Shown in pieces: positions 1 to 28,715 of a stretch of 64,000 nt of DNA (positions are counted from its first letter, which is position 1; each line of letters starts with the position of its first letter). The notes beneath the pieces were generated by a model that made no database searches, was not told where the DNA came from, and saw nothing but the letters and a program-made list of their open reading frames with translations. This DNA comes from a virus, in IMG/VR virus record IMGVR_UViG_3300022689_000474, positions 32,001-96,000 of that record. One strand, 5' to 3'. The translations under genes were made by a program, and so were the position numbers.

Positions 1-239
1 AAATCACAAGTTAAAGTATAACCGGCAGTACATAGACCTACATGTATAGCTACACTCATATTGCATGCAAATACTGTAGCACTAGGAGTAGCTAAGAATC
101 CTGCATAACATGAATCAGTTAGCCTACTAATAGGTTTACCATGAGAATATACAAACCAACATCCCATATATACTGGTCCAGTACCAGAATATGGATATGT
201 TGCTACAGTTAAATCACCTACTCTCATTGGATGTGGCAT
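1..239 (-). CDS. PAAR-like spike-tip protein (partial, runs off the window start; absent from ORF track)
   Basis: Manual translation from ATG at 239: MPHPMRVGDLTVATYPYSGTGPVYMGCWFVYSHGKPISRLTDSCYAGFLATPSATVFACNMSVAIHVGLCTAGYTLTCD. RVGD, GKPISRLTDSC and SATVF segments with Cys/His match the PAAR repeat pattern. Confidence 0.7.
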   Translation of the reverse strand, partial: MPHPMRVGDLTVATYPYSGTGPVYMGCWFVYSHGKPISRLTDSCYAGFLATPSATVFACNMSVAIHVGLCTAGYTLTCD

Positions 240-645
240 ATAATTTATCTTCAAATTCTTTTATTTCTTCGTAAACTTTTTTCTTATCTAAAAAATCTTT
301 TATTATATCTTTTGGGTAAGTATCTTCCCATTCTTTTTTTCCCCATCCAAAAGGGCTTTCAAAAGAATCAATAATAAAAGGAGTACCATATGGATGAGAA
401 AATATAATAGGTCCATTAGTAAAACATTTAAAACCTTTTTCCTCATTTATAAGTATAAATATATTATGTATCTTTATTAAAATACCTTCTTGAGAATCAG
501 TAACTCTATCTAACCATACTTTAATAGATTTTAAATAATCATAATTCATTGAAGAATAGTTTTGTAAGTTGCTTAAATCTATTATTTCTATTTTTTTTAT
601 TATCTTCCAAGTAATCTTTAATATATCTATTATATTTCTTATCAT
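214..645 (-). CDS. hypothetical protein
   Basis: 143-aa ORF overlapping the PAAR-like start; no recognisable motif. Confidence 0.6.
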   Translation of the reverse strand: MIRNIIDILKITWKIIKKIEIIDLSNLQNYSSMNYDYLKSIKVWLDRVTDSQEGILIKIHNIFILINEEKGFKCFTNGPIIFSHPYGTPFIIDSFESPFGWGKKEWEDTYPKDIIKDFLDKKKVYEEIKEFEDKLYATSNESR

Positions 646-726
646 AATATTTTAAAGTATTTACCAAATGGTTCATGTTATTCATAATACATCACTTATT
701 ATCTACATGTATATATATTATATTTA

Positions 727-747
727 AAGCTTGGGTACCCCAAGCTT
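727..747. terminator. intergenic stem-loop, possible terminator for 797..1309(-)
   Basis: AAGCTTGGG-TAC-CCCAAGCTT, a perfect 9-bp stem in an AT-rich intergenic gap; U-tract is weak. Confidence 0.5.
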
Positions 748-796
748 AATTAATTAATTAATATATATTATAAGATATAAGATATACTTGATTTTA

Positions 797-1309
797 CTAT
801 GTAAGAGAGTTATATATAGGATTATTCTCCTGTATAGAAGGTACAAATTGATCTTCTGATTCTTTATCTATTTTTATTTGAGAAACATCTATAAGAATTC
901 CATCAGATCTAATATCACTAACCTCAGTATAAAAATGTTTACATTGATAATAAATAGGACTATATATATCTAACATTAAAGAATTTATGGAAGGATTTGT
1001 TTCTATATCAAACATTTTACCCTTTTCCAAATCCATAAGTTCATAGACAGAGGAACTAATTTCACCTCTATTTGTAAAGAATAAAGGGCCTAGTGGTTCC
1101 ATCATTCTAATACGACCTAATTTATTATAATCACTTTCTATACGGATTTTAGAGAATAGGTAGACTTTTTCTATTAAGACTCCATATACACTTATATTTA
1201 TCTTCCCATCTTTAGTCTTAGTGACTTTATTAATATCAGACCAGATACCTACCTTTCTAAAGGAATTATCATGTTTAACTAAAATTAATTTATCAATTAT
1301 TTTATTCAT
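797..1309 (-). CDS. hypothetical protein
   Basis: 170-aa ORF, no motif recognised. Confidence 0.65.
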   Translation of the reverse strand: MNKIIDKLILVKHDNSFRKVGIWSDINKVTKTKDGKINISVYGVLIEKVYLFSKIRIESDYNKLGRIRMMEPLGPLFFTNRGEISSSVYELMDLEKGKMFDIETNPSINSLMLDIYSPIYYQCKHFYTEVSDIRSDGILIDVSQIKIDKESEDQFVPSIQENNPIYNSLT

Positions 1310-1342
1310 ATTTACTCTTTTAGATTATATATATATATATAT

Positions 1343-2629
1343 ATGCATTATAACAATTTGGTCAATTTGGCACCTTTTAGTAGTATACTTGAGTATAGAC
1401 CTCAAGAGGATACTTTTTTTTATATAAGTGTGAGTAAGGGTTTAGAGGATTTTTATAATATCTCTTCAAAAGATTTTATTAATAAACCATTATATTTTTC
1501 AGTATCTAAAACTAGAGATATTGATATAGAAAAATGTCATGAAAAGTTTACTAATCTAATAATGACTTCTCTTCGTTATGGTTCTAGTATAGAGATATTA
1601 AAATTATCTACTTTCTTAAAAACTAAAAATAAAGAGAAGTTAGTATGTATTATTTCTTTAAGAATAAAAAATAATGTCTTATTAAACTTAGGATTTCCAA
1701 TATCTGAGTCTTTATTTTTAAAAAGTTCTACTAGGATTGATTTATTGAAAGATACTTTATCATCTATTCTAGATAATATAGATAGCAATATTATTATAAT
1801 AGATCAATCATTAAATATATTGTATGTAAACAGATATCTTAAAAATGATTATATGGATCATTCTTTCAAAGAGATAGTAGATGGTAATATATTCTCTGAT
1901 ATAAATAGATATATAGAAGATACAGTATCTATATATGACAAACCAAATATCTTTTGTAAAGAATACAATATAGATAATCTATCTTATAAGGTAAAAGTTA
2001 ATCCTATTTTGGAAGAAAGAGAATTAGTAAATATATTTATGATCATTATAGAAGACATTACAGAATATCAGAAATTAGTATTAAAAAGTAAAATATTACA
2101 AAAAGAGTTAGATATACAAAAAGATAAGATTGATATTATATTAAGAGGATATAAATCATCTAAAGAAGAGAGTATTAATGATAATCCCAATTTAGATTTA
2201 GTAAGAAGAATAACTACAGCTACAATAAAAGGTAAGGTGAAAAGTATAACTCCTATGGATCATCAACTTATTGGTATATTAAAAGATATAGAAGATATGA
2301 AGAAGGATCATGAAAGATTAATGAATAATATGTTAAATTCAGATGACAAGATATCTTCAAAAGTTTCAGAACTAGAATTATTTATAAATAAGACAGACCA
2401 TAATATTAAATCTATTGAGAAAGTTTTAAATAAATTGGAAAAAGAGATAGTATCTAGTGAAGACTTAACATTATTAAATGTATTATTAATGTCTCCTAAG
2501 AATCAACTGATAATTTTATTTATAATAATAATAATATCGGCGGTTTTATTAGAAGATATAGTTATAGAAAGAGTAAAAAATTATATATTAAATCCATCTT
2601 CTGTTATAGAAGAAATTCTAGAGGAATAG
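1343..2629 (+). CDS. PAS-domain protein with coiled coil and C-terminal transmembrane helix
   Basis: Clear PAS/PAC (LSSILDNIDSNIIIIDQSLNILYVN...YKVKVNPIL...FMIIIEDITEYQKL); probable N-terminal PAS (FFYISVSKGLEDFYNISSKDFINKP); heptad-rich segment; hydrophobic LIILFIIIIISAVLL near the C-terminus. No kinase or cyclase output domain. Confidence 0.75.
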   Translation: MHYNNLVNLAPFSSILEYRPQEDTFFYISVSKGLEDFYNISSKDFINKPLYFSVSKTRDIDIEKCHEKFTNLIMTSLRYGSSIEILKLSTFLKTKNKEKLVCIISLRIKNNVLLNLGFPISESLFLKSSTRIDLLKDTLSSILDNIDSNIIIIDQSLNILYVNRYLKNDYMDHSFKEIVDGNIFSDINRYIEDTVSIYDKPNIFCKEYNIDNLSYKVKVNPILEERELVNIFMIIIEDITEYQKLVLKSKILQKELDIQKDKIDIILRGYKSSKEESINDNPNLDLVRRITTATIKGKVKSITPMDHQLIGILKDIEDMKKDHERLMNNMLNSDDKISSKVSELELFINKTDHNIKSIEKVLNKLEKEIVSSEDLTLLNVLLMSPKNQLIILFIIIIISAVLLEDIVIERVKNYILNPSSVIEEILEE

Positions 2630-2969
2630 AAATTTCTTCTGTCTTATTTATAAAATCTTTCATTTTTTTATCTAATTTTAATTCCTTAGATAAAGAGTAT
2701 TTTACTCTTTTATTACTATTATGATTGGTTTTTAAAGATGGGTATTTAACTTTTAAGTAATTATCTAAAAGAATATATAATCCTTTTAATAATACTTCTT
2801 TCTCTGAGCATTGAAATTCTTCTGCTAATTTATCAATTACGAGTCTTTCTTTCTGTTGTAAACTAAGAATTATTTTTTCTTTATCTTTCTTTATTCTATA
2901 TTTATATATATTATCAATATAACTCTTATCATTATAAAATTTACTAAATTTTCTTATTTGTCTTTTCAT
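2604..2969 (-). CDS. small basic protein, possible ribbon-helix-helix DNA-binding protein
   Basis: KIILSLQQKERLVIDKLAEEFQCSEKEVLLKGLYILL fits the CopG/RHH strand-helix-helix pattern; start overlaps the DnaJ stop. Confidence 0.5.
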   Translation of the reverse strand: MKRQIRKFSKFYNDKSYIDNIYKYRIKKDKEKIILSLQQKERLVIDKLAEEFQCSEKEVLLKGLYILLDNYLKVKYPSLKTNHNSNKRVKYSLSKELKLDKKMKDFINKTEEISIPLEFLL

Positions 2970-4126
2970 ATAATATTACTCTTAGATAAATAATTTATCA
3001 TATCCATATGATTATCATTTAATACTTTATAATTTATATTTCGTAATTCTAATTGGAATTTATAAACATTTCCATTTTTATCTTTTATCTCTTTCTTTCC
3101 TAATTCACTATTAGGTTTAATATAAACTCTTATAGAAGGTTCTTGACCTCTTTGTATTATTTGTTCTTTACCTTTTATGAGTTCCATCAAAGATATCCTT
3201 ATAATACCTAAATCTTCTATTTTCTTTTTGTTTCTAGGTTTCTTCTTAGTATATTCTTCCTTTCTTTTATCATTATCTTTATAAGAAGCATCGGAATATG
3301 GGATAATTCTTATCACTAAATCTCCTGAGATGAAAAAGCCTTTATCTAGAGGGTTTAATTGAACTTCATCTCCTTTTCCTGGTAAAGTGATAAAGAAATC
3401 TTCCGATATATTAGTAGGCACTCTAACTCTTACATAAGTATTTATATTAATATATCCTTTACCAACACATTTACTACATATACTTGGAGAATCTATTACT
3501 CCTTGTCCTCCACAATATTTACAATTAACTATGACATGATTTGTAGGCGTTCTATCAATACCTGAACCTCCACATTTATCACACGTTTTACTTTCTTTAC
3601 CAGTACCAGAACATGAGGGACAGATGGTTCTCTTGATATAATATATCTGTTTATTAATAAATTGAGTATTTCTACCTTTATTTATATCTTCTTTAGTAAG
3701 TCTATAGTCTATATATTTATTAGGACCTTTTGCCTGATATTGAAAATCAAATGTGGTATTAAAATTATTATTCCTTCTACTATTAGTATATATCTCTTCC
3801 CAAAGAGTTTGACCAGTAGAAACGTCATATCCATGATTAGAGTTATAAGAGGTTTTATAACTTTTCTTCTTATTAGTAGTTTTGTAATAAGGATTATTTT
3901 TAGTATATTGATTAGATGAAGATGTTTGAGATTGAGTATATATCCCCTTATCTCTACATTCAATAATAAAGTTATAAGCTTCATTAATCATCGTGAATTT
4001 TTCTTTACCTTGTGGATTAATATCAGGATGATAAGTTTTAGCTAGTTTTCTATAAACTTTTTTTATTTCTTCAGTAGAAGTATTTGGATCTACTTTTAAT
4101 CTATTATAAGATTCTTCTAAATTCAT
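2966..4126 (-). CDS. dnaJ: DnaJ-family co-chaperone (J domain + zinc finger + C-terminal domain)
   Basis: J domain EIKKVYRKLAKTYHPDIN...FTMINEAY; four CxxCxGxG repeats (CPSCSGTG, CDKCGGSG, CKYCGGQG, CSKCVGKG); LPGKGD...GDLVIRI C-terminal motif. Confidence 0.92.
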   Translation of the reverse strand: MNLEESYNRLKVDPNTSTEEIKKVYRKLAKTYHPDINPQGKEKFTMINEAYNFIIECRDKGIYTQSQTSSSNQYTKNNPYYKTTNKKKSYKTSYNSNHGYDVSTGQTLWEEIYTNSRRNNNFNTTFDFQYQAKGPNKYIDYRLTKEDINKGRNTQFINKQIYYIKRTICPSCSGTGKESKTCDKCGGSGIDRTPTNHVIVNCKYCGGQGVIDSPSICSKCVGKGYININTYVRVRVPTNISEDFFITLPGKGDEVQLNPLDKGFFISGDLVIRIIPYSDASYKDNDKRKEEYTKKKPRNKKKIEDLGIIRISLMELIKGKEQIIQRGQEPSIRVYIKPNSELGKKEIKDKNGNVYKFQLELRNINYKVLNDNHMDMINYLSKSNII

Positions 4127-4161
4127 ATTTAAATAATTTAAATTAGTAAAGAATATAGTAA

Positions 4162-5652
4162 TCAGTCTTGATATGTAAAAGTATTTCGACTTCTCTTCTT
4201 ACTGATATACAAAGCTTTATCTGCATTTTCTATAGTCTTAGAGCAACCAGCACTTAGAGTTATAAAATTACTTATAGTAGATGTAGGGTGTACTATTTTC
4301 TTATCAGCTATTTTAGAACTTATTCTTTCGTATATAGAATTTAATATTTTAATATGATCTTTTTCTTTAACCTTTGGATCAATATTTATCACTATACAGA
4401 ATTCTTCTCCACCAACTCTAGCTGCAGCATCTTTCTTTTTAATAGTATTCTTTAAAGTCTTAGCTACTTCTATTATAATCTCATCTCCTCTTGGATGTCC
4501 ATAAGTATCATTTATAGCTTTAAACCAATCTATATCCAGCATCATATAATATATAATATCTTTACTAAAATAACTTAATTTCTTTATATACAATTCTAGA
4601 CCTCTTTTATTCATAATACCAGTCAAGGGGTCTGACATATATAATTTCTTAATTTTAATATATTTAAAAGAAAAATCACTTAATCTCTTAATAATATAAA
4701 ATAGTATTAAACCTGTAGAAGATAATAATATATTAAAATAGAAAGATATTATTACTGTAATACTAATCGATAAAAGTATAACTAAGAATGAATATTTAAA
4801 TATATTCTTAATAAGTAATGTACCTAAAGAAAATAATACAATTGTCGATGTATTACCCACTAATAAGTAATAGTTATTTCTTCTAGATAGTATTTCTATT
4901 GCATGTAATATAGTAGCGGGATATATACTATCATTTAATATCATAGGATTCTTTATATGTGTTGCCAATCCTGTTGCATCATATCCTATAATAACAACTT
5001 TATTATTTGTATCTCTCTCTATTTTATTACCTGATAATAGATAATCTAAATCATAGGTATTTATATTGGAAGGACTTTCGGGCCAAAGTAATATTATTTT
5101 TTTATACCTTTCATCTGTAAAGGCACCTAAATATGGAGATGCTTCTTCCAATATATTATTAGATGATATACTTTCTAAAGTAAGTAAAGCACCTCCAAGA
5201 GATATAGTAGAAAATACTCTTCTATAAAGGGGATTTTCAGTACTAATATTACTAAAACCTACAGCGCTGTAAGGAATAGAGGGGTCAGGATAAATTACAT
5301 AACCATTAGACCCAAGGACCATACTCATTATTATTCCTGATTGGTTCTCTATAGAAAATAGATCTAAAGGATCATCTTTTTTTTCACCAGAAAACAAGAC
5401 ATCAAAAATAAAATATTTAGCATCTATATTATTAATTGCTCGTGATAAAGTTTGTCTAGAAATAGGAAGTTCTTCTAGATTTTCAATATCTGAATCGGAT
5501 ATCAATACTAATGATAAAGAGTAAGTATCATAATCCTTAAACTTATTAAATATTAAATTTATAATATTTATTTCTATAGGATTGATCCAAAAACATAGAA
5601 AGAAAACAGTAATAAATGTTCCTATACTTTCTAGAATTTTACTCCTTACCAT
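4162..5652 (-). CDS. CHASE2-domain membrane diguanylate cyclase (GGDEF)
   Basis: N-terminal TM; CHASE2-like motifs (FIFDVLFS, KVVIIGYDATGLATHIKNP, PATILHA); about three TM helices; GGDEF domain DPLTGIMNKRG...LDIDWFKAINDTYGHPRGDE...ARVGGEEF...ADKALYISKKRSRN. Confidence 0.9.
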   Translation of the reverse strand: MVRSKILESIGTFITVFFLCFWINPIEINIINLIFNKFKDYDTYSLSLVLISDSDIENLEELPISRQTLSRAINNIDAKYFIFDVLFSGEKKDDPLDLFSIENQSGIIMSMVLGSNGYVIYPDPSIPYSAVGFSNISTENPLYRRVFSTISLGGALLTLESISSNNILEEASPYLGAFTDERYKKIILLWPESPSNINTYDLDYLLSGNKIERDTNNKVVIIGYDATGLATHIKNPMILNDSIYPATILHAIEILSRRNNYYLLVGNTSTIVLFSLGTLLIKNIFKYSFLVILLSISITVIISFYFNILLSSTGLILFYIIKRLSDFSFKYIKIKKLYMSDPLTGIMNKRGLELYIKKLSYFSKDIIYYMMLDIDWFKAINDTYGHPRGDEIIIEVAKTLKNTIKKKDAAARVGGEEFCIVINIDPKVKEKDHIKILNSIYERISSKIADKKIVHPTSTISNFITLSAGCSKTIENADKALYISKKRSRNTFTYQD

Positions 5653-5661
5653 TTTGTTTAT

Positions 5662-6150
5662 TTATAAAGGACAAGAAAGGCTTAAAGTATTTGATTCACC
5701 TTTATATATAATATTACTAGGAGAGGATAAATCTAAGATTATACTTTCAAAATTTAACATTCCATTCTTACTTATTTGTCTTCCTATTATAGTTAAGTTC
5801 TCATCGACATTATATTCTCCAAGAGGTTCAGTAATATTTGAATCTTCTAAGGTATTAATAGAAGCAGATCCGATGATAATATTATCATCTTTCAGTACAC
5901 CTTTAAAACAAAAGATATATGATTCATCAGTATCACTATAATATATACCTGTTACTAACTTTCCATCTATAATAATCTCTATTTCAGTATTACCTTTTGT
6001 AATTATATATTTACCATTACCTCTAAAACTTAAATTTTTAAGAATCTCTTCTGAGTTATCATATAATATTAAAGAATGAGATGTATCAATATTTCCTATT
6101 ATAGATATAAATAAAGTACAGAAGAATAAACTATATTTTAATATTCTCAT
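5662..6150 (-). CDS. small exported protein (signal peptide), unknown function
   Basis: MRILKYSLFFCTLFISIIGNIDTSHS signal-peptide-like start; beta-rich body with two Cys; 9-bp gaps to both neighbours. Confidence 0.7.
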   Translation of the reverse strand: MRILKYSLFFCTLFISIIGNIDTSHSLILYDNSEEILKNLSFRGNGKYIITKGNTEIEIIIDGKLVTGIYYSDTDESYIFCFKGVLKDDNIIIGSASINTLEDSNITEPLGEYNVDENLTIIGRQISKNGMLNFESIILDLSSPSNIIYKGESNTLSLSCPL

Positions 6151-6159
6151 AAGATTTAT

Positions 6160-6999
6160 TTAATTGATTTGAATAATATTATCAAAAGTTTCTGTATATC
6201 TATTATCTATTGATTTTAAAAAAGTATCATTAAGAGTATTGTTAGTTAGAACTATATCAAAGGTACCGTCTACAGAATCTCCAAATGTAAAAGAACCATT
6301 AGATCTTTTTATATAAAAGCCTCTTTTTAAGTATCCTTTTATTCTGATGTAAATATTATCACCTATAAAGATATATTTTATACTATATAGTCTTAAAGCC
6401 GCATCATAATTATCTATAGTAAAAGTATTAGATAACCTATAATCATCTTTATTTATTAAAGAACCTTCTCCTTGTTGAAGACGGTTGATAAATCTACCAT
6501 CAATAGATGAATTTATAACTTCACCTTCTGTAACAAGTATCATAGAATTACCTTCATCATCAACTAATAATTCAAATGCAGTACCCCTAACAGAAGTTAT
6601 ACTAGAGGGTGTTCTAAGATTAATTTCTTCATTAACCTTAACTCTTACTTGACCTAATTCTATATAGAGATTTCCAATATACTGCGGGTCAGTACTTCTT
6701 TCTATTTTAACTATAGAATTTTCTCTAACTAAAATATCATATTTACTATTATTTAAACTATCTATATATATATTAACAGAGCTATTTTCTAAACTTCTTA
6801 TCTCATTACCATACGAATCTATTTTAGTATTTGTACTAATCAAAGAATTATTAAGATAGACCCTACCAGATATATTATTAAGAAATAAGTATTCTTTAAA
6901 ATTTATAGCTTTTGCTGGTTCTATAAAAGAACCAAACAATAGAAAAATAGAGAATAATATTCTATATAGAAGTTTTATATTACAAATATTTTTTATCAT
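6160..6999 (-). CDS. exported FecR-domain protein
   Basis: Signal peptide ending PAKA; FecR signature LYIELGQVRVKV...LRTPSSITSVRGTAFELLVDDEGNSMILVTEGEV. Confidence 0.85.
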   Translation of the reverse strand: MIKNICNIKLLYRILFSIFLLFGSFIEPAKAINFKEYLFLNNISGRVYLNNSLISTNTKIDSYGNEIRSLENSSVNIYIDSLNNSKYDILVRENSIVKIERSTDPQYIGNLYIELGQVRVKVNEEINLRTPSSITSVRGTAFELLVDDEGNSMILVTEGEVINSSIDGRFINRLQQGEGSLINKDDYRLSNTFTIDNYDAALRLYSIKYIFIGDNIYIRIKGYLKRGFYIKRSNGSFTFGDSVDGTFDIVLTNNTLNDTFLKSIDNRYTETFDNIIQIN

Positions 7000-7057
7000 A
7001 AATATTTTTCTATCATAATAATAATGGATTAAAGTAAATTAAAGTAATTGAATACAT

Positions 7058-7555
7058 ATGACTAATTCAGCGAATATCGACTCTATTAGAGTAACTTATC
7101 CCCCTTTCAATTTACCTTCAGGAAGGAAAGTACAATTCAAGGTACTATCTTACAAAGAACGTAGATCTTTAGTCCAAAGTTTTAAGAATGATTCTGGATG
7201 TCTTTTGGAGGAATGGTTTGCCGCTTATTGTTTAGTAAAAGTAGATGATACTCCTGTAGCCAAAGATTGGGAAATAAATTCTAATTGGCCAGAAAGGATG
7301 GCAGGCTGGACTAGTAAAGATGTTATGTTTTATTGTAGAGTATTTGCTGATACAGAAATGTTATCAGAACAAGGAGATCAAGAGGCAAGAGAAGTGGCAA
7401 AAAAACTACTTGGGGAGGAGAGCAAAATGGAGGAGAAATCAGCTCAAGAATTGGAGGAGGTCCCATCACAGATATCAGATCTAATTACCTCTTCCCCTCC
7501 CGGATCTACTCAGAACAAAAGGAGAAATCTCAAAGTAAATACAACTGGAGCATAG
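7058..7555 (+). CDS. putative tail assembly chaperone (gpG-like, unshifted product)
   Basis: FNLPSGRKVQFKVLSYKERR start typical of myophage tail chaperones; in-frame A AAA AAA slippery heptamer at codons AKK (7399-7405). Confidence 0.65.
   Translation: MTNSANIDSIRVTYPPFNLPSGRKVQFKVLSYKERRSLVQSFKNDSGCLLEEWFAAYCLVKVDDTPVAKDWEINSNWPERMAGWTSKDVMFYCRVFADTEMLSEQGDQEAREVAKKLLGEESKMEEKSAQELEEVPSQISDLITSSPPGSTQNKRRNLKVNTTGA
7399..7405 (+). other. candidate -1 programmed ribosomal frameshift site
   Basis: GCA AAA AAA CTA in the frame of 7058; the -1 frame has no stop from 7351 to 8088 and is the frame of ORF 7603..8088. Confidence 0.75.
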
Positions 7556-8088
7556 GAAAATTAGTTCATGCATATGTAGCATCTAATAACTTAAGACTTT
7601 TTATGGAGTCGAGGAGTAATCATTTTTTCCTCGACCATCCATATATAGGTCTTATATCAAGTATAGCTTCTCCTAATTTCTCAAAGGGATATGGTTTTCT
7701 CTTCTATGATGTGACTTATATGATAAGTGGAGCAGGAAATATTATTAGATGGGAAAGATGTATCCCAAGAAATCCAGAAGAAATAATACATCTATCCTAT
7801 CTAAGAAATAGATTAGTTGATTCAGTATCAAAGAATATAAGACAGAAATTAGATCTAGATTCGTGGGTAAAGTTGAATGAAGTTATAAATCTACCATTAG
7901 TCCCAGGATTTAGTTATATGGACCTTGATGATTTCTTAAAGGTAGCTATTATAGAAACTGTAAATTCTTTAATAAGAGATTTAAATAAAAAGGAACAAGA
8001 GTTATATCAAAAGTTAATGCAATCTAGAAAGGATGAACAACCATATAGAAGTCCTATGGAAGGGGTACCGAAGCCAAACTTTAGGTAA
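7405..8088 (+). CDS. frameshift extension (gpT-like) of the tail chaperone; includes track ORF 7603..8088
   Basis: Manual -1 frame translation TTWGGEQNGGEISSRIGGGPITDIRSNYLFPSRIYSEQKEKSQSKYNWSIGKLVHAYVASNNLRLF continues into MESRSNHF...; fusion product 343 aa. Confidence 0.7.
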   Translation, partial: TTWGGEQNGGEISSRIGGGPITDIRSNYLFPSRIYSEQKEKSQSKYNWSIGKLVHAYVASNNLRLFMESRSNHFFLDHPYIGLISSIASPNFSKGYGFLFYDVTYMISGAGNIIRWERCIPRNPEEIIHLSYLRNRLVDSVSKNIRQKLDLDSWVKLNEVINLPLVPGFSYMDLDDFLKVAIIETVNSLIRDLNKKEQELYQKLMQSRKDEQPYRSPMEGVPKPNFR

Positions 8089-8164
8089 GAATATTTAATG
8101 AAGGATATGTTCTTATAAAAAGGTTATATGATATGTATCATAATATATCAAGTAGAATAAAAAT

Positions 8165-9547
8165 ATGAGTGATAAGATACCTTTAGATTATAGAGAGAGT
8201 GATATAAAAACATTTCCTGCCACTAAAGATGTTAATCTACCTCCAGATCTTCGGGCCCCAAGATCTTTAGGTCAAAAAGGTAGGATATCATCTTATATAT
8301 CAAGGGATGGAGATATATTTACAAGTTGTGTAAGACCAAATTATAAATTATTAGCAGCATGGGATTCAGCTAGAAGAAAAGAACCAGTAATAAATAGAGG
8401 ATTAACTATAACTGTAAATAGTATAGTAGCTAAATTAGGAAGATATATACATCCTGATCCAGAAATAGAAGACTTCATATCGGAGAATTTAGAAGGGAAA
8501 ATAAAAAGAATATTATCAGAACTTGCAGATAGTTTAACTTGGAGTGGTTTTACTGTAGGTGAGAATATATATAAAGTAAGAAAGAATAAATATGGAGATA
8601 GACAAATATGGTTAGATGATATTATGGTATTTCATCCTCTAGAGCCATTATTTAAGTTAAATGCGAATGGTAGATTAACTCATGGAGAAAGAGTTCAACA
8701 TGATAGATATCTAACAGGAATATGGGTTCCATGTTCAAGTAAAATAAATAGATCAATAGGTCCATCTTTCTCTGGTAGTCATATTAGATTAGAAAGAAGT
8801 AAAGTAATTCATTGTAAGATGGGACCAGGTTCAGGTGTAAGTCCTTATGGATCATCATTAATAGAAAGTGTATTTAAATATCATATATATAAAGAATTAT
8901 TCTTAGATATGCAGGCAACGGCTTTAGATAGATATGGAAGTCCTTTAATATATATGAAAGTACCATATCAACAGACATCTGATGATTATGAAGAGCCAGA
9001 TGGAACTGTTAGAAAAAAATACTTTCATGAATATGCAGAAGAAAAGTTATCTGATTTAAGTAAACATCAAGTATTAATAATACCAACAATACCTGGTGGA
9101 GAATCAATTGAATTAGGTTCTTTAACAACTGGTAATAATTTTAGTTCTGCTTTCAATGATGCTATAGATTTATGTGATGATAATATCTTAATGGGTTTAG
9201 GTATACCTAATCTTATAACTAAAGATAAAAATAATGGATTAGGGAGTAGTGGGTCTGCAGAGAGACAAGTAGATATTTATCAGATGCATATAACTACTAT
9301 ATATGATAATTTGATAAATTCTTTATTACAGCATGTTATACATCCATTAATCTTATGGAACTTCAGTATATATAATAAACCATTAGCTAAAAAACCAGGT
9401 AGTTTTTTAGTAAGACCAAGTTTAATAACAGAGATGAAAACATATGTAGATGTAATAAGATTACTACATGAGACTAATAATCTAAAAGCTTCTGATATTG
9501 ATGTAATAAGAGATTTATTTAGATTACCGTATAATAAGCCCAAATAA
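8165..9547 (+). CDS. portal protein (DUF935 / Mu gp29-like)
   Basis: 460 aa; DSLTWSGFTVGENIY, PYGSSLIESVFK, LDRYGSPLIYMK, FNDAIDLCDDNILMGL, LLQHVIHPLILWNF fit DUF935 portals; position upstream of protease and capsid. Confidence 0.8.
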   Translation: MSDKIPLDYRESDIKTFPATKDVNLPPDLRAPRSLGQKGRISSYISRDGDIFTSCVRPNYKLLAAWDSARRKEPVINRGLTITVNSIVAKLGRYIHPDPEIEDFISENLEGKIKRILSELADSLTWSGFTVGENIYKVRKNKYGDRQIWLDDIMVFHPLEPLFKLNANGRLTHGERVQHDRYLTGIWVPCSSKINRSIGPSFSGSHIRLERSKVIHCKMGPGSGVSPYGSSLIESVFKYHIYKELFLDMQATALDRYGSPLIYMKVPYQQTSDDYEEPDGTVRKKYFHEYAEEKLSDLSKHQVLIIPTIPGGESIELGSLTTGNNFSSAFNDAIDLCDDNILMGLGIPNLITKDKNNGLGSSGSAERQVDIYQMHITTIYDNLINSLLQHVIHPLILWNFSIYNKPLAKKPGSFLVRPSLITEMKTYVDVIRLLHETNNLKASDIDVIRDLFRLPYNKPK

Positions 9548-9575
9548 TAAAAGTTCACTTAAACTATTTTATGAA

Positions 9576-10433
9576 ATGAACCATAAAAATATACCCCCGG
9601 ATGGGGTACATGCTCCATATTCATATATATATGAAAGTTCTATACAAAGGAACTCATCAACAGGTTTTATTGCAGAAGATATAGGTAAGTTAAGTTATCA
9701 ATTAGATAATGGAGAGATATATGTATTAATAGATACAAGACCAACATGGATAAAGATTTTAAGTGAAGGAGATAGAACTTTACCAACTGGTCCGGCTGGA
9801 GGTCATCTTACTGGAACATTTCCAAATCCGTTAGTACATCATGATTCTCATAATCATACTCCTGGGATTTCAATACCAGCGTATCCAGAAAGTTTAACTC
9901 CATCTGGTTTTGCTGGAGGAGATTTAACAGGATCTTACCCAAATCCTTTATTAAAGTTAAGTGGTGTTATAGCAGGAACTTATACAGCACCATCTATTAC
10001 AGTAAATGATAAAGGTTTAATAACAAGTGTTGTAGGAAGTGATAATGTAGCTTTAAAAAGTGGAGCTAATTTTACTGGTGATATTCAAGTACCAAGTATA
10101 ACTATTAATGAAGGGATAAATCTAGATGGCGATTTCAAATCTAATATAATATGGAGGACTACAGGGGGAAGTTGGACTCCTAGAGCAGAAAGAGGAATGA
10201 ATCAAATGCATACATTGACCTCCAACGGAACATTAATGCCAATAAATGGTGCATCAAGTGGTCATATATTTAATTTAATAATAAAACAGGATTCCGTTGG
10301 AGGAAGAGTATTAAATTATGGGTCAGGGTACACAATAAATGGAAGTATAAAATCAACTGCTTATTCTTATTCCTGGATACAAGTTTTAGTAGTTGATCCT
10401 AGTACATTTCTAGGAAATATCATCCAATTCTAA
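9576..10433 (+). CDS. short fibre / virion appendage protein
   Basis: Two AGG(H/D)LTG(T/S)(F/Y)PNP repeats, AGTYTAPSITVNDKGLITSV fibre motif and a C-terminal LIIKQDSVGGRVL beta domain seen in phage fibres. Confidence 0.6.
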   Translation: MNHKNIPPDGVHAPYSYIYESSIQRNSSTGFIAEDIGKLSYQLDNGEIYVLIDTRPTWIKILSEGDRTLPTGPAGGHLTGTFPNPLVHHDSHNHTPGISIPAYPESLTPSGFAGGDLTGSYPNPLLKLSGVIAGTYTAPSITVNDKGLITSVVGSDNVALKSGANFTGDIQVPSITINEGINLDGDFKSNIIWRTTGGSWTPRAERGMNQMHTLTSNGTLMPINGASSGHIFNLIIKQDSVGGRVLNYGSGYTINGSIKSTAYSYSWIQVLVVDPSTFLGNIIQF

Positions 10434-10838
10434 GATATAATCCTCTATCTGTAATTTTCCTTCTAAAATCAATTTCCCATATAACATTAGAATATGTTTA
10501 CAATCTTCTTGTTTATAAGTATATCTAGGGCAGGTACATGAGAAAGATTTATTATCCTCTAATAATTCAAGAGTATATATATTCTTATTACTAGAACATA
10601 TCCAAATATTTTCTAATTGTTTACTTTCCTTTATTTCGTATCCATTAATTTCCATCCATTTATATATCTTCTTAAGAGCTTCACTTAAATCTATTTTTTG
10701 CATATTGAATACTTTTTTACCTGATTTCCAACTTATAGTAGTATTATCTATATCCAAAGAAGGTTTATTAAGTTTTTCAAATAAGTACAAACAACATTGA
10801 ATTTTGAGATAGAAAGAAAGAATGGATTCTTTTTTCAT
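10410..10838 (-). CDS. SWIM zinc-finger protein
   Basis: YTLEL...FSCTCPRYTYKQEDCKHILML = CxC...CxH SWIM motif. Confidence 0.8.
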   Translation of the reverse strand: MKKESILSFYLKIQCCLYLFEKLNKPSLDIDNTTISWKSGKKVFNMQKIDLSEALKKIYKWMEINGYEIKESKQLENIWICSSNKNIYTLELLEDNKSFSCTCPRYTYKQEDCKHILMLYGKLILEGKLQIEDYILELDDIS

Positions 10839-10855
10839 AACTAATCACCGTATAA

Positions 10856-12493
10856 ATGAATTTATTACAGATTAATGATAAGACTGTGGAAGGTAAACGA
10901 GGTATATTAAAAGTACCTCTAGTCAGAGTGGGTAAATGGGCTCATAAGGCAGCAAAGGTAATACAGTTTACCATATCAGACCTAAATCAGATAATAAAGA
11001 ATTTTAGGGATAATATCTTACAACATAAACCGTATTTAACATATGGACATGTAATAGAACCATACTCCTATGATTCACATAGGAAAAAGGGGGATTTAAT
11101 TGATATGAATATAGATGGAGATATCTTATATGGATATTTCAAGGCCAACCCTTCTACTTATGAAAGTGTATTAAATGGAGATTATGAATTCGCTTCTGTT
11201 GAATATGTAAAAGATTATATGGACCCAAAAACGGGTAATAATGTAGGTATGGTATTATTAAGGACAGCATTAACGAATTCTCCTTTTTTACCAGGAGATA
11301 TAAAAATCGAAGCATTATCCCAAAATCCTTCAATAGATAGATTATTTACGACTATTCCAATAGCAAGTAAAAATAATATAAATATTATGACAGATTCTAC
11401 CACTCAGAATTTATCAAATACTGCTACTTTAGAAAGGGGAGAAACTGAAGTAGCTCCTAATAACAATAATAATAATTCTCCTAATATAGAAAATGGGGAG
11501 AATCAATATACTCCTAATTCTATCAGTGAGACATCAGTAGAGAGTAAAGGGGAGAATCAAATACAAGATTCAAATGTTGCCCCTAAAGAACCAAGTATAG
11601 ATATAGCATCATTAAAAGAAGAGATAAGCCAACTTAAAAAGCAATGGATAGAAGCTCAAGAGTTGACGAAGAAGATATTAGAACAACAGAAGGAAATAAA
11701 TGAAAGAGCTCTGGCTCAAACAGTAAAACAAGAGAATAATGAAAAGGAGATAGTAGAGTCAAATAAAGAGGTTGAAGAAGAGAATAAAGAGAAAGAAAAT
11801 AAGGCTAAAGAAAATGATAAGGAAGGAACTAACGAAATAGAACCAGAAGGAGAAGTTAAAGCTTCTCAAGAGGTAAATCAGTCAACTAATAAAGAAAAGA
11901 AAGATGATACTACCCCTATGAATCTAAATACTGAATTAAATAAATATGTTAATAGTAACTCTGGTCCTTTAGATATAAAAGGATTAGTTCAAAGTATTCG
12001 TGATAGAGTCAGTTCTGCATATACCGCTCAGCTTCAAGATTCTCAAGCTATGGTACAGACTCTTCAACAGCAATTAAATGATATTAAAAATCAGGCTGAA
12101 GAAGAAAGGAAACAGAGAGATGCATATGCTCTTTCCCTTCAAGAGGCTCAAAATCAAGCTTTCTTAGCGAGTACTGATTTAACCAGAGATCATCTTATTG
12201 GTAATGGAGTTCCTCCAGAGTTGGCAAATCAGTTTATCCAAGTACAATCAGGTTTATTAACCCAACAGAGTAAGATAAATTTATCATTAGATGGACAGGA
12301 ACCTAAAGAATTAGATATTACAGAAGCCCTTTGTGAATTATTCATTAGAGCGGTCTCTTGTAATCCCGTGAATCTATCTGTTTCAGGTCAATCTACTTTT
12401 AGTGGAGGGACTTATGATCCTACCGGTAGAACTCAAAGAATCCGACAGGTTATCGAAAGGAATAGAAAAAGAGCTCAAGAATTGTATAAATAA
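10856..12493 (+). CDS. prohead protease-scaffold (Mu gpI-like protease + acidic/coiled-coil scaffold)
   Basis: GKWAH...IIKNF...YGH...YEFASVEY...DPKTGNNVGMVLLRTALTNSPFL matches the Mu-like protease I family; followed by E/K/N-rich and coiled-coil regions. Confidence 0.8.
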   Translation: MNLLQINDKTVEGKRGILKVPLVRVGKWAHKAAKVIQFTISDLNQIIKNFRDNILQHKPYLTYGHVIEPYSYDSHRKKGDLIDMNIDGDILYGYFKANPSTYESVLNGDYEFASVEYVKDYMDPKTGNNVGMVLLRTALTNSPFLPGDIKIEALSQNPSIDRLFTTIPIASKNNINIMTDSTTQNLSNTATLERGETEVAPNNNNNNSPNIENGENQYTPNSISETSVESKGENQIQDSNVAPKEPSIDIASLKEEISQLKKQWIEAQELTKKILEQQKEINERALAQTVKQENNEKEIVESNKEVEEENKEKENKAKENDKEGTNEIEPEGEVKASQEVNQSTNKEKKDDTTPMNLNTELNKYVNSNSGPLDIKGLVQSIRDRVSSAYTAQLQDSQAMVQTLQQQLNDIKNQAEEERKQRDAYALSLQEAQNQAFLASTDLTRDHLIGNGVPPELANQFIQVQSGLLTQQSKINLSLDGQEPKELDITEALCELFIRAVSCNPVNLSVSGQSTFSGGTYDPTGRTQRIRQVIERNRKRAQELYK

Positions 12494-12539
12494 TTTATTT
12501 AAAGTTTAATATAACTTCTTTTATTTTTAGTATAATACT

Positions 12540-13808
12540 ATGCATAATAACACTAATTTTAGTCCTTATATTTCACCTTTTCAGCCTACGACAAGTGATT
12601 TATATCCTGCGGAACCTATTTATACCGAACTGGCACGATCCTTTTCTAATATAGTAGGAGTTACTCCTCTTACAGAGATGTTTCCGGTAGAAGAAATTCC
12701 TCAAAGGATTGTCATAATGGATATTAGCTTTGAGAATATTCCTACAATCATGCCCCTTGTGGATTGGGCAAAACCAGATGTAATTACAGGATATAATGCT
12801 GGAAGATCAGAAAGAAGAGTTATTACTCCTCTGGCAATTAGAGAAAGTAAATTTATTTCATATGGTCAATTGAATACTAGGATTCGTCCTGGTACTTTAA
12901 GTGAATTTGCTGATCCAGATCAAATCATTGAACAAACTATAAGAGATCTAGTCACTTCTCATAACCTGACTTGGGATGTTTATAGAGGTATGATGTTAAT
13001 GGGTGGTATTAGTTATACTGATCCTCGTACTGGTGCTTCTATTGATGTTACTTCTGGAATTCCTATTCATAATCAATGGTCTTATGATACTACTGAAGGT
13101 TATAGAGGTAGAAATGAATCTTCACTATTCTTAAGAATGGATGATGCTAACTCTCTTAATAGTTTAACTCAAGGGACTCCTTGGACAGATCCGAATGCGG
13201 ATATTATAGGTACTATGATGAAAATCTCTAGTTGGTTTAGAACTACTAATAAGTCTAGAGTTACCCGTATTGCTATGAGTTCTTCTTTGGCCCATATCTT
13301 AATGTTTAATAATCAAGTTAAACACTTTATGGGTATGCCGGTCTTTAATCTGTTTCCTAATCAAGTTGTAGATGGAGCTCCCCAAAATATTAATAATACA
13401 ATGATGAACTTTACTGTGGGTTCAGAAGGTCTACAAAGTATAGCAGGCATTCCTATTACTACTATAGAAACTATCTATAAAGATCCTGTTACGAATACAG
13501 CTCGTTCTGTTTTCCCGAAGAATAGAATAGTTCTTCTATCTGAAGTTGATGCTCTAAATAATAGAGAAGCTCCTGGTCGTACTCAATATTGTATATCTGA
13601 GAATGAAGATAGTAGCCCGGGTATGTGGACTCGTACAGTAGATCATACTCTACCCCCTCAAGCTCCTGGATTATATATTCAGTTAGGTAATGCAGGTATG
13701 CCTTATCTTAAATTCCCCTTCCGTGTAGCTCATATGGTTGTGGGTAGTCCGAATGATATCAATAAGAGATTGGGTGTTGTAGGTGATTATCAGTTTGGTA
13801 TGCCTTAA
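12540..13808 (+). CDS. major capsid protein (Phage_cap_E-like, HK97 fold)
   Basis: 422 aa after the protease; LTEMFP, PLVDWAKP, TPLAIRESKFI, PWTDPNADIIG, IAMSS, VFPKNRIVLL, PGMWTR, GMPYLKFP motifs of lambda-E-like capsid proteins. Confidence 0.85.
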   Translation: MHNNTNFSPYISPFQPTTSDLYPAEPIYTELARSFSNIVGVTPLTEMFPVEEIPQRIVIMDISFENIPTIMPLVDWAKPDVITGYNAGRSERRVITPLAIRESKFISYGQLNTRIRPGTLSEFADPDQIIEQTIRDLVTSHNLTWDVYRGMMLMGGISYTDPRTGASIDVTSGIPIHNQWSYDTTEGYRGRNESSLFLRMDDANSLNSLTQGTPWTDPNADIIGTMMKISSWFRTTNKSRVTRIAMSSSLAHILMFNNQVKHFMGMPVFNLFPNQVVDGAPQNINNTMMNFTVGSEGLQSIAGIPITTIETIYKDPVTNTARSVFPKNRIVLLSEVDALNNREAPGRTQYCISENEDSSPGMWTRTVDHTLPPQAPGLYIQLGNAGMPYLKFPFRVAHMVVGSPNDINKRLGVVGDYQFGMP

Positions 13809-13933
13809 GGTCCAAGTTAAATAAATAAATAATTGTTGATATTTTATTAATGTTGATGAATTATTCTTATATTAGTTAAGTAGTAATTTTATCTTTAATC
13901 AAATTTATAATTAGTTTTCATAGGTAATAAATT

Positions 13934-15484
13934 ATGCCATCATTAAGTCACAATACAGAATTTTTGATGCGACATGCTAGAACTCTAGGTACTATTAGAA
14001 CTTATGTTCCTGGGGGAGTGGCAATCGCACCTGATGCAGTTATTCTTCATGATACTGCTTCTTTAGATATTGCTATAGGTGGTGTCTACGATACTGCCCG
14101 GTTAGATCCTGCTAATCGAGCTGCATGGGAAGCTCAATTAGCTGCTTATGTGCCTCCTGCTACAGCTCATATTATTTCATTTTTAGGAGGAGTAATGGAG
14201 TTTGGTGCTAGAGAATATACTCTGGATTCTGGTCCCATGATAAATGCAGGAGATACTTTTCATTCTCAAGCTATTGATTTAGAAGAAATCTGGGATCTCC
14301 TTTCTACTGGTAGTTATGTACTTGCTGCTGTTCCGGATTATGGAGAACCTAAGTTACCCGCAGAAGCAACTGCATTGGGATTAGATTATTATATTACTAG
14401 AGATGGTAATGGTGAATTTACACTTCAATATGCTGAAGATCCTTTTGTAGCTAATGAAGTTGCTAAAGCTGGTGGTTACTCTAGACTACAATCTTTAATG
14501 CTTAATGGTACTGCGACTCCTATCCAAAGACAAGCATTATATAGAATAGCTAACTCTAGAGTTATGATGGATATATGTATTAAAGGAGTTAGATATATAT
14601 TACAGAAAGTAGCTGATGCTCCTCTTTGTTGTAATGGAGGTGTTAATTACTCCTTAGATACTATTAGGTTCATGAGTAATACCTCTATGGAAGTACCTGG
14701 TGCTCCCTTTACTACAACTTTACAAGATGGTACTAATGCTTTTGGTTTGACAGCTGACTTTGGAGGTCTCATAGATGGTGTTTATCCTATAGCTACTTTC
14801 TTTGCTGGTGCCCCTGTTTCTCCTAATGTTACCTTAATACCGGGTGAACCTGTTGCTACAGTTGCTAATGCTAATATCTCTTATATAAGAGGTGTGGGTC
14901 CTGATTTTGGTCCTCCTGATGTCGCTGAAGGTGATCCTAGTAATGGTCCTGGTAGTGAATTGGGATATCTTAAAGGAATTACTTTCTATGAAACCCAAAG
15001 GGATGCAGAGTTAAGAATTAATGGTAGAACATTGGTTGAACCTCAATCTTATGAAGAGATTGAAGCATTTATGGCTTACTTGATGCAATCTCCAGGAGAT
15101 GATCCTTGTAATGTTTGTATGGGTCTTGGTTGGGAAACAGTAGCATTTGCTACGGCAAGTTTCTTTGATCTTTCTAATGCTTGTTCTGCACCCCAATCAG
15201 CTCAAGGTATTCATCCTCTAGATTTAGGTTTCTTTACTGCTAATAATGTTACTTCTTTTGGTCCGGATATTGAATGGTTAGGTAGAGTTAATCCTATCTA
15301 TTCTCAAGGTAGTAATATTCCTATATATGCTCCTTCTGTTGGTGGATCTGCCTTACATATGCATGCTAATCCAGTTCCTTTAATAAGATTTGATATCTTA
15401 GTTGATCCAGCAGCAGTAGCTCCTGTTCCTCATGTAACAATATTACCTGAGAGTGTAACGAGAAGCTATAGAGTTCTTCCGTAA
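13934..15484 (+). CDS. putative abundant capsid-associated structural protein
   Basis: 516 aa, A/G/P-rich, GCT/GGT/CCT codon use like the capsid and sheath genes, AGGT Shine-Dalgarno; no family recognised. Confidence 0.55.
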   Translation: MPSLSHNTEFLMRHARTLGTIRTYVPGGVAIAPDAVILHDTASLDIAIGGVYDTARLDPANRAAWEAQLAAYVPPATAHIISFLGGVMEFGAREYTLDSGPMINAGDTFHSQAIDLEEIWDLLSTGSYVLAAVPDYGEPKLPAEATALGLDYYITRDGNGEFTLQYAEDPFVANEVAKAGGYSRLQSLMLNGTATPIQRQALYRIANSRVMMDICIKGVRYILQKVADAPLCCNGGVNYSLDTIRFMSNTSMEVPGAPFTTTLQDGTNAFGLTADFGGLIDGVYPIATFFAGAPVSPNVTLIPGEPVATVANANISYIRGVGPDFGPPDVAEGDPSNGPGSELGYLKGITFYETQRDAELRINGRTLVEPQSYEEIEAFMAYLMQSPGDDPCNVCMGLGWETVAFATASFFDLSNACSAPQSAQGIHPLDLGFFTANNVTSFGPDIEWLGRVNPIYSQGSNIPIYAPSVGGSALHMHANPVPLIRFDILVDPAAVAPVPHVTILPESVTRSYRVLP

Positions 15485-15596: not shown

Positions 15597-16319
15597 ATGG
15601 CTTCTAGTAAAATAATTGTAAATATACAAACTCCTTTCAGACATGGGAATAGATTACTCCCTAGAGGACAACAAATGGTCTATTCTATATCTAATGATAA
15701 AGATATGAAGGATTTATTCAATCTTATGAATAATCCTATGTCTAAAAATGGAGTATATCTGGGTGAAGCTGATAGAAAGTTATATGATAAATATGTGAGG
15801 GAAAAATATGATAGGTTTGGAAATTCTGCTTTTAAAGAAAGTGTTGAAATGAATACATCTTATTTACAACCTCCTGAAGAACCAGTAGAGTCCCCCTATT
15901 TAAATGCTGTCTCTTTATCTAAAAAAGGAGATCAATACCCTAAGAATGATTCACAACAAAATGTAGAAAAGAGTATTACTACACTATTAGCTGAATCTGA
16001 AACTAGAGATAAATCAGAATACGTTAAAGAAGATTTAGTTGAACAAGAACATATTGAAACTGTCAGTGTGGAAGATGAAGATAATACAGATAATTCTATA
16101 AATGTAGAAGATCTTAAAAGAGAATTTGAGGAAAGATATGATCATTTAGTTAGTGCTCATTATACTAAGATCCAAGATAGAGCTAAAGAGTTGAATATTG
16201 AATATACAGTTAAAGATGATACTATTCTAGAAATACTTGAAGCTGAATTCTTGGAGAGTGCTGTTAATTTTGGTATAGAAGAGACTTTAGACGAACTTTT
16301 AAAATCAAAGAATAAATAA
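15597..16319 (+). CDS. hypothetical head-module protein (small N-domain, acidic linker, helical C-domain)
   Basis: 240 aa between capsid and neck genes; KIQDRAKELNIEYTVKDDTILEIL resembles a Rho-N/HeH-like helical motif. Confidence 0.55.
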   Translation: MASSKIIVNIQTPFRHGNRLLPRGQQMVYSISNDKDMKDLFNLMNNPMSKNGVYLGEADRKLYDKYVREKYDRFGNSAFKESVEMNTSYLQPPEEPVESPYLNAVSLSKKGDQYPKNDSQQNVEKSITTLLAESETRDKSEYVKEDLVEQEHIETVSVEDEDNTDNSINVEDLKREFEERYDHLVSAHYTKIQDRAKELNIEYTVKDDTILEILEAEFLESAVNFGIEETLDELLKSKNK

Positions 16320-16337
16320 AATCTATAGTTATCCTTC

Positions 16338-18945: not shown

Positions 18946-19009
18946 GTTATAACATTAATAAAATATAACTTTGCTGTTTAGTATATAAATATTTTAAAAG
19001 GTAATAATT

Positions 19010-22075: not shown

Positions 22076-22123
22076 TGCATTATAAAACTTAGTAAACTAA
22101 ATCTTTAATTATTAATAAATATT

Positions 22124-22972: not shown

Positions 22973-23003
22973 TAAATATTCTTTAATACTCCTTCATTAA
23001 TTT

Positions 23004-23040
23004 ATATAAAACATGGAGAATATACCTCCATGTTTTATAT
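23004..23040 (+). terminator. intrinsic terminator after the tail tube gene
   Basis: ATATAAAACATGGAG-AATATAC-CTCCATGTTTTATAT, perfect 15-bp inverted repeat with T-rich 3' arm. Confidence 0.75.
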
Positions 23041-23118
23041 TATATTTCTGTATATTAATACTTATAACTATTAGATTATTAGACATAAATATATATATAT
23101 CTAAATATATTGTATTAG

Positions 23119-25368: not shown

Positions 25369-25377
25369 TGACTAAAT

Positions 25378-28233: not shown

Positions 28234-28237
28234 AAGT

Positions 28238-28714: not shown

Positions 28715-28715
28715 T

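Follow-up and report, generated by a model that had tools for sequence, protein, structure and literature searches.

Does a bacteriophage here carry its own outward-facing receptor, wired to make the second messenger cyclic di-GMP (c-di-GMP) in the cell it infects? The question is raised by a trio of open reading frames (ORFs) on the minus strand at positions 4162–6999 of the window, by which we mean the whole 64,000-nucleotide stretch of viral DNA analyzed (bases 32001–96000 of the 152,052-bp IMG/VR record IMGVR_UViG_3300022689_000474). The genes, at 6160–6999, 5662–6150 and 4162–5652, encode a predicted secreted FecR-domain protein (P0003, 279 amino acids (aa)), a predicted secreted small all-beta protein (P0002, 162 aa) and a predicted CHASE2-transmembrane-GGDEF diguanylate cyclase (P0001, 496 aa), respectively. 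A preliminary description of the locus had reported three same-strand genes with 9-bp gaps and a divergent gap of 58 bp, and the ORF coordinates bear this out: both gaps within the trio are exactly 9 bp, and 58 bp separate the cassette from the first plus-strand gene, which starts at 7058. The reading we favor, at a probability of roughly 0.6, is that the cassette is a phage-carried extracytoplasmic sensor module that would make c-di-GMP in the infected cell.

A predicted CHASE2-GGDEF receptor and its putative exported partners

The GGDEF catalytic domain of P0001 (residues 340–490; minus strand, 4183–4635) matches Pfam GGDEF (PF00990) at 1.4e-29 and 103.4 bits in hmmscan, against a cut-off of 23.8, and TIGR00254 at 103.8 bits against a cut-off of 37.4; a six-frame search gave 106.4 bits for GGDEF. 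The translation contains the motifs DIDWFK, INDTYGHPRGD and RVGGEEF and the distal K..R in SKKRSRN. The catalytic and substrate positions comprise DIDWFK, N381, D390, R412, GGEEF, K485 and R489, and the active-site residues align with those of solved active cyclases (WspR, 3ign) and are kept in an orthologue (P0004). GGEEF and GGDEF are both active forms of the signature. N381 and D390 correspond to what we take, by PleD N335/D344 and the Hypr GGDEF enzymes, to be the GTP-specific pair, and c-di-GMP is therefore expected rather than cyclic GMP-AMP (cGAMP). A Hypr-GGDEF assignment with cGAMP as product was rejected on the presence of the guanine-specifying Asp. The allosteric inhibitory site (I-site) RxxD, a common but non-defining feature, is replaced by KxxD both here and in the related contig L002 (KKKD in P0001, KKRD in L002), and since this feedback site is altered the output of P0001 is, judging from its sequence, probably weakly self-limited.

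These features also bear on whether the domain synthesizes c-di-GMP at all. Many GGDEF proteins are non-catalytic, and a protein with a non-canonical KxxD I-site and a sensor half so divergent that a word-based search of 5.8 billion proteins returned just two relatives might have a receptor or scaffolding role instead, produce a different nucleotide or be regulated into a normally inactive state, leaving the periplasmic proteins to a separate job. Degenerate GGDEF domains, however, normally lose catalytic residues, whereas here all catalytic and substrate-binding positions are intact and kept between phages whose cyclases are only 52% identical overall, and we regard this alternative as quite unlikely.

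The CHASE2 sensor domain (approximately residues 36–262; minus strand, 4867–5547) lies between the first transmembrane (TM) segment and a TM cluster. It matches Pfam CHASE2 (PF05226) over residues 25–251 at 2e-10 and 41.1 bits (cut-off 26.3), and at 42.7 bits in the six-frame search; the orthologue P0004 scores 36.0 bits. The same CHASE2 columns are conserved in P0001 and in cellular CHASE2 proteins, and the Atlas model of residues 1–330 superposes on bacterial CHASE2 proteins with TM-scores of 0.78–0.84. The word-based search of 5.8 billion proteins gave no cellular sequence match for the CHASE2 half. Hydropathy places one segment at about residues 5–35 and a 59-residue hydrophobic cluster at residues 263–321 (minus strand, 4690–4866). 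By analogy with other CHASE2 proteins, for which a three-TM layout has been described (PMC5192318), the cluster would form three TM helices, with the GGDEF domain in the cytoplasm. The earlier identification of a CHASE2-TM-GGDEF protein with intact catalytic motifs thus stands on the Pfam matches and the motifs in the translation, and with it, at the level of domains and motifs, an anatomy in which an extracytoplasmic sensor is joined to a competent-looking diguanylate cyclase.

The FecR domain that the preliminary description placed in the first gene has a borderline Pfam score (PF04773; 22.6 bits in hmmscan against a cut-off of 24, and 24.8 bits in the six-frame search; 29.3 bits for the orthologue P0006), and it is backed by two further lines of evidence. 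Of the distant matches given by phmmer in a library of 1.84 billion representatives, the ten that were scanned all proved to be Pfam FecR proteins, and the AlphaFold2 model (predicted local distance difference test, pLDDT, 81) is matched by Foldseek to 4m0n, the periplasmic domain of a Parabacteroides anti-sigma factor, and to 6ovk_R, PupR, with probability 1.00 and E ~1e-4. P0003 is built of a signal-peptide-like N-terminus ending in ...EPAKA, a FecR beta-sandwich core at about residues 37–190 and a C-terminal alpha/beta domain without an assigned family. The FecR fold starts about 35 residues in, directly after one hydrophobic segment; by hydropathy an N-terminal segment of this kind is present in both P0002 and P0003. 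Neither a cytoplasmic anti-sigma domain nor a LysM domain was found in P0003.

The structural matches invite comparison with the anti-sigma regulators E. coli FecR and Pseudomonas PupR, which share the periplasmic FecR fold with P0003. Those proteins have a cytoplasmic anti-sigma domain that P0003 lacks, and the extracytoplasmic function (ECF) sigma factor and TonB-dependent transducer genes that go with them were not seen nearby: a domain scan of the genes neighboring the cassette found no sigma-factor or transducer domain. An assignment as a FecR-type anti-sigma factor was rejected on these grounds. Because the N-terminus is only signal-peptide-like, we take P0003 to be a FecR-domain protein that is secreted rather than one acting as an anti-sigma factor.

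The middle protein, P0002, likewise has a signal-peptide-like N-terminus, followed in its structure model (pLDDT 79) by an all-beta, barrel-like fold of about nine strands. No family was found for it in Pfam, PHROG, NCBIfam or PADLOC, and no Foldseek match at E <= 0.001; the best matches in the PDB are generic small barrels with VIA Z <= 5.8. A lipoprotein assignment was rejected, as L002 does not keep the signal-region Cys and there is no lipobox. A complex prediction for mature P0003, mature P0002 and the CHASE2 periplasmic domain returned a score of 0.00 from shallow alignments and is uninformative either way.

Phage origin, gene order and selection

The cassette is genuine phage DNA rather than a piece of host sequence joined on by chimeric assembly. 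Over 30 kb separate it from either end of the 152-kb record, which carries the IMG/VR label 'provirus' and is approximately 82% complete. Its genes, with a GC content of 24–26% and a GC content at third codon positions (GC3) of 11–15%, sit inside the distribution for the genes of the phage (mean GC 27.2 ± 4.7%, GC3 14.5 ± 3.7%); the genome as a whole has a GC content of 29% and a GC3 of 14.5%. The earlier remark that composition matches the surroundings is accurate for the genome overall, in GC and GC3 alike, but not for the right-hand virion neighbors, which are GC-richer (29–39%). The same gene order recurs in L002, L004 and L093, three contigs independently assembled from other runs. L002, an 84-kb Logan contig, carries the portal gene, two small genes and then, divergently, FecR, the small protein, CHASE2-GGDEF, DnaJ and a giant 4848-aa gene. 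L004 is a 98% strain with the same gene order, and L093 represents a 66% lineage, also in the same order, in which the P0003 orthologue is partial and the cyclase start follows the small gene. Position, composition and recurrence together uphold the earlier statement that the cassette is phage-encoded.

Identity to the window varies widely across these contigs. The P0003 orthologues are 42% (L002), 66% (L093, partial) and 98% (L004) identical; those of P0002 are 58–66% identical in L002 and L093, the lower figure being that for L002, and the L002 cyclase is 52% identical, as against 88% for its portal and 96% for its major head protein. Across the wider comparison with L002, the virion genes (window 7058–15484) are 64–96% identical and the leftward block (window 1–7000, from FecR as far as the genes that precede the giant ORF) 37–73% identical. 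Ratios of nonsynonymous to synonymous substitution (dN/dS, by NG86) are 0.23 for the cyclase, 0.22 for the small protein and, for FecR, 0.53 against L002 and 0.22 against L093; portal and capsid give 0.03–0.06. That the ratios of all three genes fall below 1 supports purifying selection on the cassette genes. Two of the checks proposed in the preliminary description, synteny and dN/dS, therefore come out in its favor, with gene order kept in diverged phages, and the cassette is a maintained, fast-evolving accessory operon rather than a chimera or a decaying fragment. Scans of IMG/VR with cyclase, FecR and portal alignments and with two degenerate DNA patterns gave no further carriers, and a scan of JGI metagenomes gave GGDEF-domain matches only, at <=43% identity; all these scans work through exact short patterns and reach close relatives only.

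An assembly chimera, or a recently captured host fragment now in decay, would suit the 'provirus' label and a cassette lower in GC than the adjoining virion genes, but would have to account for an identical gene order in three contigs from other runs, for frames that are all open with dN/dS below 1, for a composition equal to the phage average and for the distance from both record ends. We find it scarcely credible.

The label also prompts the idea that the cassette is cargo of lysogenic conversion or of a carrier state rather than a device for lytic growth. Active in a resident phage, it would raise c-di-GMP and make the host sessile and aggregated, to the protection of cell and phage alike. 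In keeping with such a role, the cassette belongs to a fast-evolving accessory block that runs opposite in strand to the virion genes, and GGDEF genes occur in prophage-like records from Klebsiella and Salmonella. The gene content of the record points elsewhere. Its left arm encodes an NAD ligase, a helicase, NrdD with its activase (NrdG) and a 2-oxoglutarate oxygenase, and its right arm ThyX, primase, helicases, a clamp loader, PolA, a RecA-like protein, dUTPase and a PD-(D/E)XK nuclease. Among the genes scanned at the two ends there was no integrase, repressor or host flank, both ends being phage replication modules, and the genome, with a replisome of its own, resembles in build that of a large lytic myovirus. 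An integrase could sit in the part missing from a record that is approximately 82% complete, and we judge the cargo interpretation unlikely. As a separate observation on the record, the 'provirus' label lacks backing from gene content, with replication and nucleotide-metabolism genes at both ends and no integrase or host gene among approximately 30 proteins scanned.

Among 50,697 phage records, the only relatives of the major head protein belong to the Ma-LMM01 group and to a Microcoleus phage, at approximately 40% identity. The cultured phages nearest in capsid, Ma-LMM01 and My-WqHQDG, lack both CHASE2 and GGDEF, which suggests that the cassette was acquired within the present sub-lineage.

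Related modules and a possible signaling route

The preliminary description had stated that CHASE2 receptors often neighbor FecR-domain genes in bacteria, and both published clusters and the relatives of P0003 agree with this. The Burkholderia 'BiofilmReg' operon encodes a response regulator, a LysM-FecR protein, a CHASE2 histidine kinase and a DUF4136 lipoprotein (PMC5192318), and a Campylobacterota cluster encodes a CHASE2 adenylate cyclase, a FecR-domain protein, a phosphodiesterase and a tetratricopeptide repeat protein (PMC9239204). The nearest cellular relatives of P0003 (L010, L012) lie directly upstream of CHASE2-Guanylate_cyc and CHASE2-HisKA genes, and in the window, too, the FecR-domain gene adjoins the CHASE2 receptor gene and is co-oriented with it. 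Like the cassette, the Burkholderia and Campylobacterota clusters set a secreted FecR-domain protein beside a CHASE2 receptor, often with a small exported protein, and the outputs are interchangeable. Unlike the cassette they are chromosomal, with histidine kinase or class III cyclase outputs and other third partners, and the Burkholderia FecR protein carries the LysM domain that P0003 lacks. The two-domain architecture of P0001 itself is found in bacteria in an Atlas cluster of CHASE2-GGDEF proteins ('putative diguanylate cyclase', 560 aa, 117 members), which matches residues 1–330 with a TM-score of 0.83, by predicted structure only. A construct of S. meliloti CyaD1 without CHASE2 makes cyclic AMP (cAMP) constitutively (PMC5498481), which suggests that CHASE2 holds the output off until signaled.

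The preliminary description knew of no characterized phage system of this architecture; that the architecture lacks a precedent in phages is not supported. Although tblastn with the CHASE2 half and the FecR protein of the window matched no phage record, a canonical cellular CHASE2 query, run by tblastn against phage records, led to the cultured Methylophilales phage Melnitz. Its cluster (MZ577097.1, 52712–56876; L095) encodes CsgF, CsgG, a curlin-repeat protein, a FecR-domain protein, a second curlin-repeat protein and a CHASE2-Guanylate_cyc protein of 683 aa (CHASE2 at 8e-41; no GGDEF), of which gp102–gp104 form the triad. The same run occurs in the cultured Pelagibacter phage HTVC008M (NC_020484.1, 9560–13807; L096), with gp017–gp019 as the triad. 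Across the two phages CHASE2 scores 136–143 bits and FecR 38–43 bits (136 and 38.5 in HTVC008M).

As in the cassette, the triads are phage-borne and run in the order FecR, secreted protein, CHASE2 sensor with nucleotide-cyclase output. The differences are substantial. The output in HTVC008M and Melnitz is a class III adenylate/guanylate cyclase, whereas that in the window is GGDEF; the middle gene encodes a curlin-repeat protein unrelated to the P0002 beta-barrel; and CsgF and CsgG stand beside the triads, whereas no CsgG or Curlin_rpt match was found in the 152 kb of the present record, itself approximately 82% complete. The carriers differ as well, HTVC008M and Melnitz being T4-like Kyanoviridae on SAR11 and OM43 and the window phage belonging to the Ma-LMM01-like capsid lineage. 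The literature has touched the same genes from another side. A 2022 study gives FecR and adenylate cyclase a putative regulatory role in the curli (type VIII secretion system) clusters of pelagiphages, reporting them as widespread and expressed in ocean metatranscriptomes, with FecR read as an iron regulator (PMC9599517), and the Melnitz paper treats the curli pore only; CHASE2 is mentioned in neither. A FecR protein, an exported protein and a CHASE2 nucleotide cyclase are thus a kind of module already present and published in phages, and the novelty here lies in a GGDEF domain as output, a beta-barrel protein as partner, the lack of curli genes and a phage of unrelated lineage. To the question whether the same cassette had been described in phages before, which the preliminary description itself raised, the answer is divided: the kind of cassette is the same, and the output domain and middle gene differ.

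The comparison also works in the other direction. The 'adenylate cyclases' of HTVC008M and Melnitz can be re-annotated as CHASE2 receptors, and for their 'iron regulator FecR' a role as CHASE2 partner is more likely; the iron-regulator reading of pelagiphage FecR is probably wrong, and the partner role fits better. We note in passing that the gene upstream of these cyclases, annotated 'FecR' or 'hypothetical', encodes a FecR-domain protein.

GGDEF genes as such are not confined to this phage. They are annotated in Bacillus phages G and SP-15, Bordetella phages FP1, CN1 and CN2, Acetobacter phage phiAX1 and Pseudomonas phage Y1, and a diguanylate cyclase has also been discussed in a marine virus of the Mu-like type (PMC7785012). 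Like P0001 these are phage-carried GGDEF genes, at 25–35% identity, but the tblastn and PHROG matches stop at GGDEF; none reaches the CHASE2 half, and none comes with FecR.

The window proteins are kin to the Melnitz proteins at the family level only, and for that reason the two captures look independent. A tentative extension, which we put forward as a possibility and rate well below the sensor reading itself, is that unrelated phage lineages have repeatedly captured a FecR-CHASE2 sensor and wired it to cAMP (in myophages and podophages of SAR11 and OM43) or to c-di-GMP (here). Extracytoplasmic sensing during infection might then be a general phage strategy, in which fast-evolving exported partners set cue specificity. 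Envelope damage, secondary adsorption and cell density are conceivable cues, and the purpose could be lysis timing, superinfection exclusion or the aggregation of future hosts.

To our knowledge, a ligand is known for none of the CHASE2 receptors, and the role of the FecR partner is unexplained even in bacteria. A compact phage module with an easily read c-di-GMP output could offer a tractable model of CHASE2 function. Taken with the FecR and CHASE2 cyclases of the pelagiphages, the cassette suggests that phages may bring their own outward-facing sensors to time a perturbation of second messengers.

For the cassette itself a signaling route can be proposed, in which we infer the topology, the contact between partners and receptor, the signal, the enzyme activity and the downstream phenotype. 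The operon would be transcribed leftward from the 58-bp divergent region. The FecR-fold protein and the small beta-barrel protein would be exported as soluble proteins to the periplasm or the cell surface, and the CHASE2 receptor would span the inner membrane, its GGDEF domain on the cytoplasmic side. By analogy with the bacterial FecR-CHASE2 modules, the exported proteins may capture an envelope or extracellular cue or relay it to CHASE2, which would gate GGDEF dimerization and activity. The GGDEF domain would then condense two GTP into c-di-GMP, presumably under weaker product inhibition owing to KxxD in place of RxxD. Host c-di-GMP effectors would alter surface behavior (motility or pili, exopolysaccharide, aggregation), to the benefit of the phage. 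The signal must act via host effectors, since neither PilZ, EAL, CsgG or curlin genes nor another GGDEF domain were found in the 152 kb of the record. Possible gains include a change in pili or motility, exopolysaccharide production, aggregation, exclusion and a shift in lysis timing.

Phages and hosts contend over cyclic-nucleotide signals (Panoptes, PMC12657218, is an example), and a weakened feedback site would favor flooding the cell with product. The cassette could on that account serve counter-defense, its c-di-GMP disturbing a nucleotide-based immune or stress pathway of the host. Yet neither the cassette proteins nor their neighbors match PADLOC, none of the systems in that catalog is known to use c-di-GMP as an immune messenger, and simple flooding needs no extracytoplasmic sensor; such interference strikes us as very unlikely. 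Assignment to a known anti-phage defense system was likewise rejected, with none of the six block proteins matching PADLOC-DB.

Several points weigh against a sensor module that makes c-di-GMP. The CHASE2 and FecR sequence matches are weak (41 and 23–25 bits). The orientation depends on the helix count at residues 263–321, where two helices rather than three would leave the GGDEF domain facing outward and useless. Compared with the structural genes, the cassette proteins are evolving far more rapidly, and the dN/dS ratios are rough, with dS saturated at approximately 1–2.3. Finally, the route depends on a host that possesses c-di-GMP effectors, as no PilZ, EAL, CsgG or curlin gene was found in the record, itself approximately 82% complete.

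Neighboring genes and host

The divergent region between the cassette and the virion module (7000–7057, 58 bp) is AT-rich and presumably holds the cassette promoter. At 25% GC both the promoter and the terminator scans are uninformative; the former found 49 sites where 40 were expected in such AT-rich DNA. Downstream of the cyclase by 35 bp and on the same strand lies a DnaJ-like gene with a J domain and a CXXCXGXG zinc finger (2966–4126, minus strand). The terminator scan, for what it can tell at this composition, found no terminator between the two, and the position of the gene is kept in L002, L003 and L004; it may be co-transcribed with the cassette.

Immediately to the right of the cassette are the portal and major head genes. 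Within this virion module a SWIM zinc-finger ORF is read in the opposite direction (10410–10838, minus strand) and is 35% identical to its L002 counterpart, against 64–75% for its neighbors. The leftward block has a single plus-strand gene, a 428-aa ORF at 1343–2629 that has no family, bears one very hydrophobic C-terminal segment (residues 377–412) and is 48% identical in L002.

As to the host, scans of genome collections with the major head protein and NrdD gave nothing, and no tRNA genes were found in the window and four scanned loci, a scan that left 96–125 kb of the record outside it. The nearest Atlas clusters are mostly from Cyanobacteriota. The capsid relatives come from cyanophages only, whereas NrdD and NrdG count against an oxygenic host; the pair, an anaerobic NrdD with its radical-SAM activase at 10950–13665 of the record (G000; L006), hints at an anaerobic or microaerobic one. 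The record also contains three giant ORFs, at 16006–30522, 90975–98807 and 109005–125459 in the same coordinates, encoding 4838, 2610 and 5484 aa, the first of which is kept in L002 and L004.

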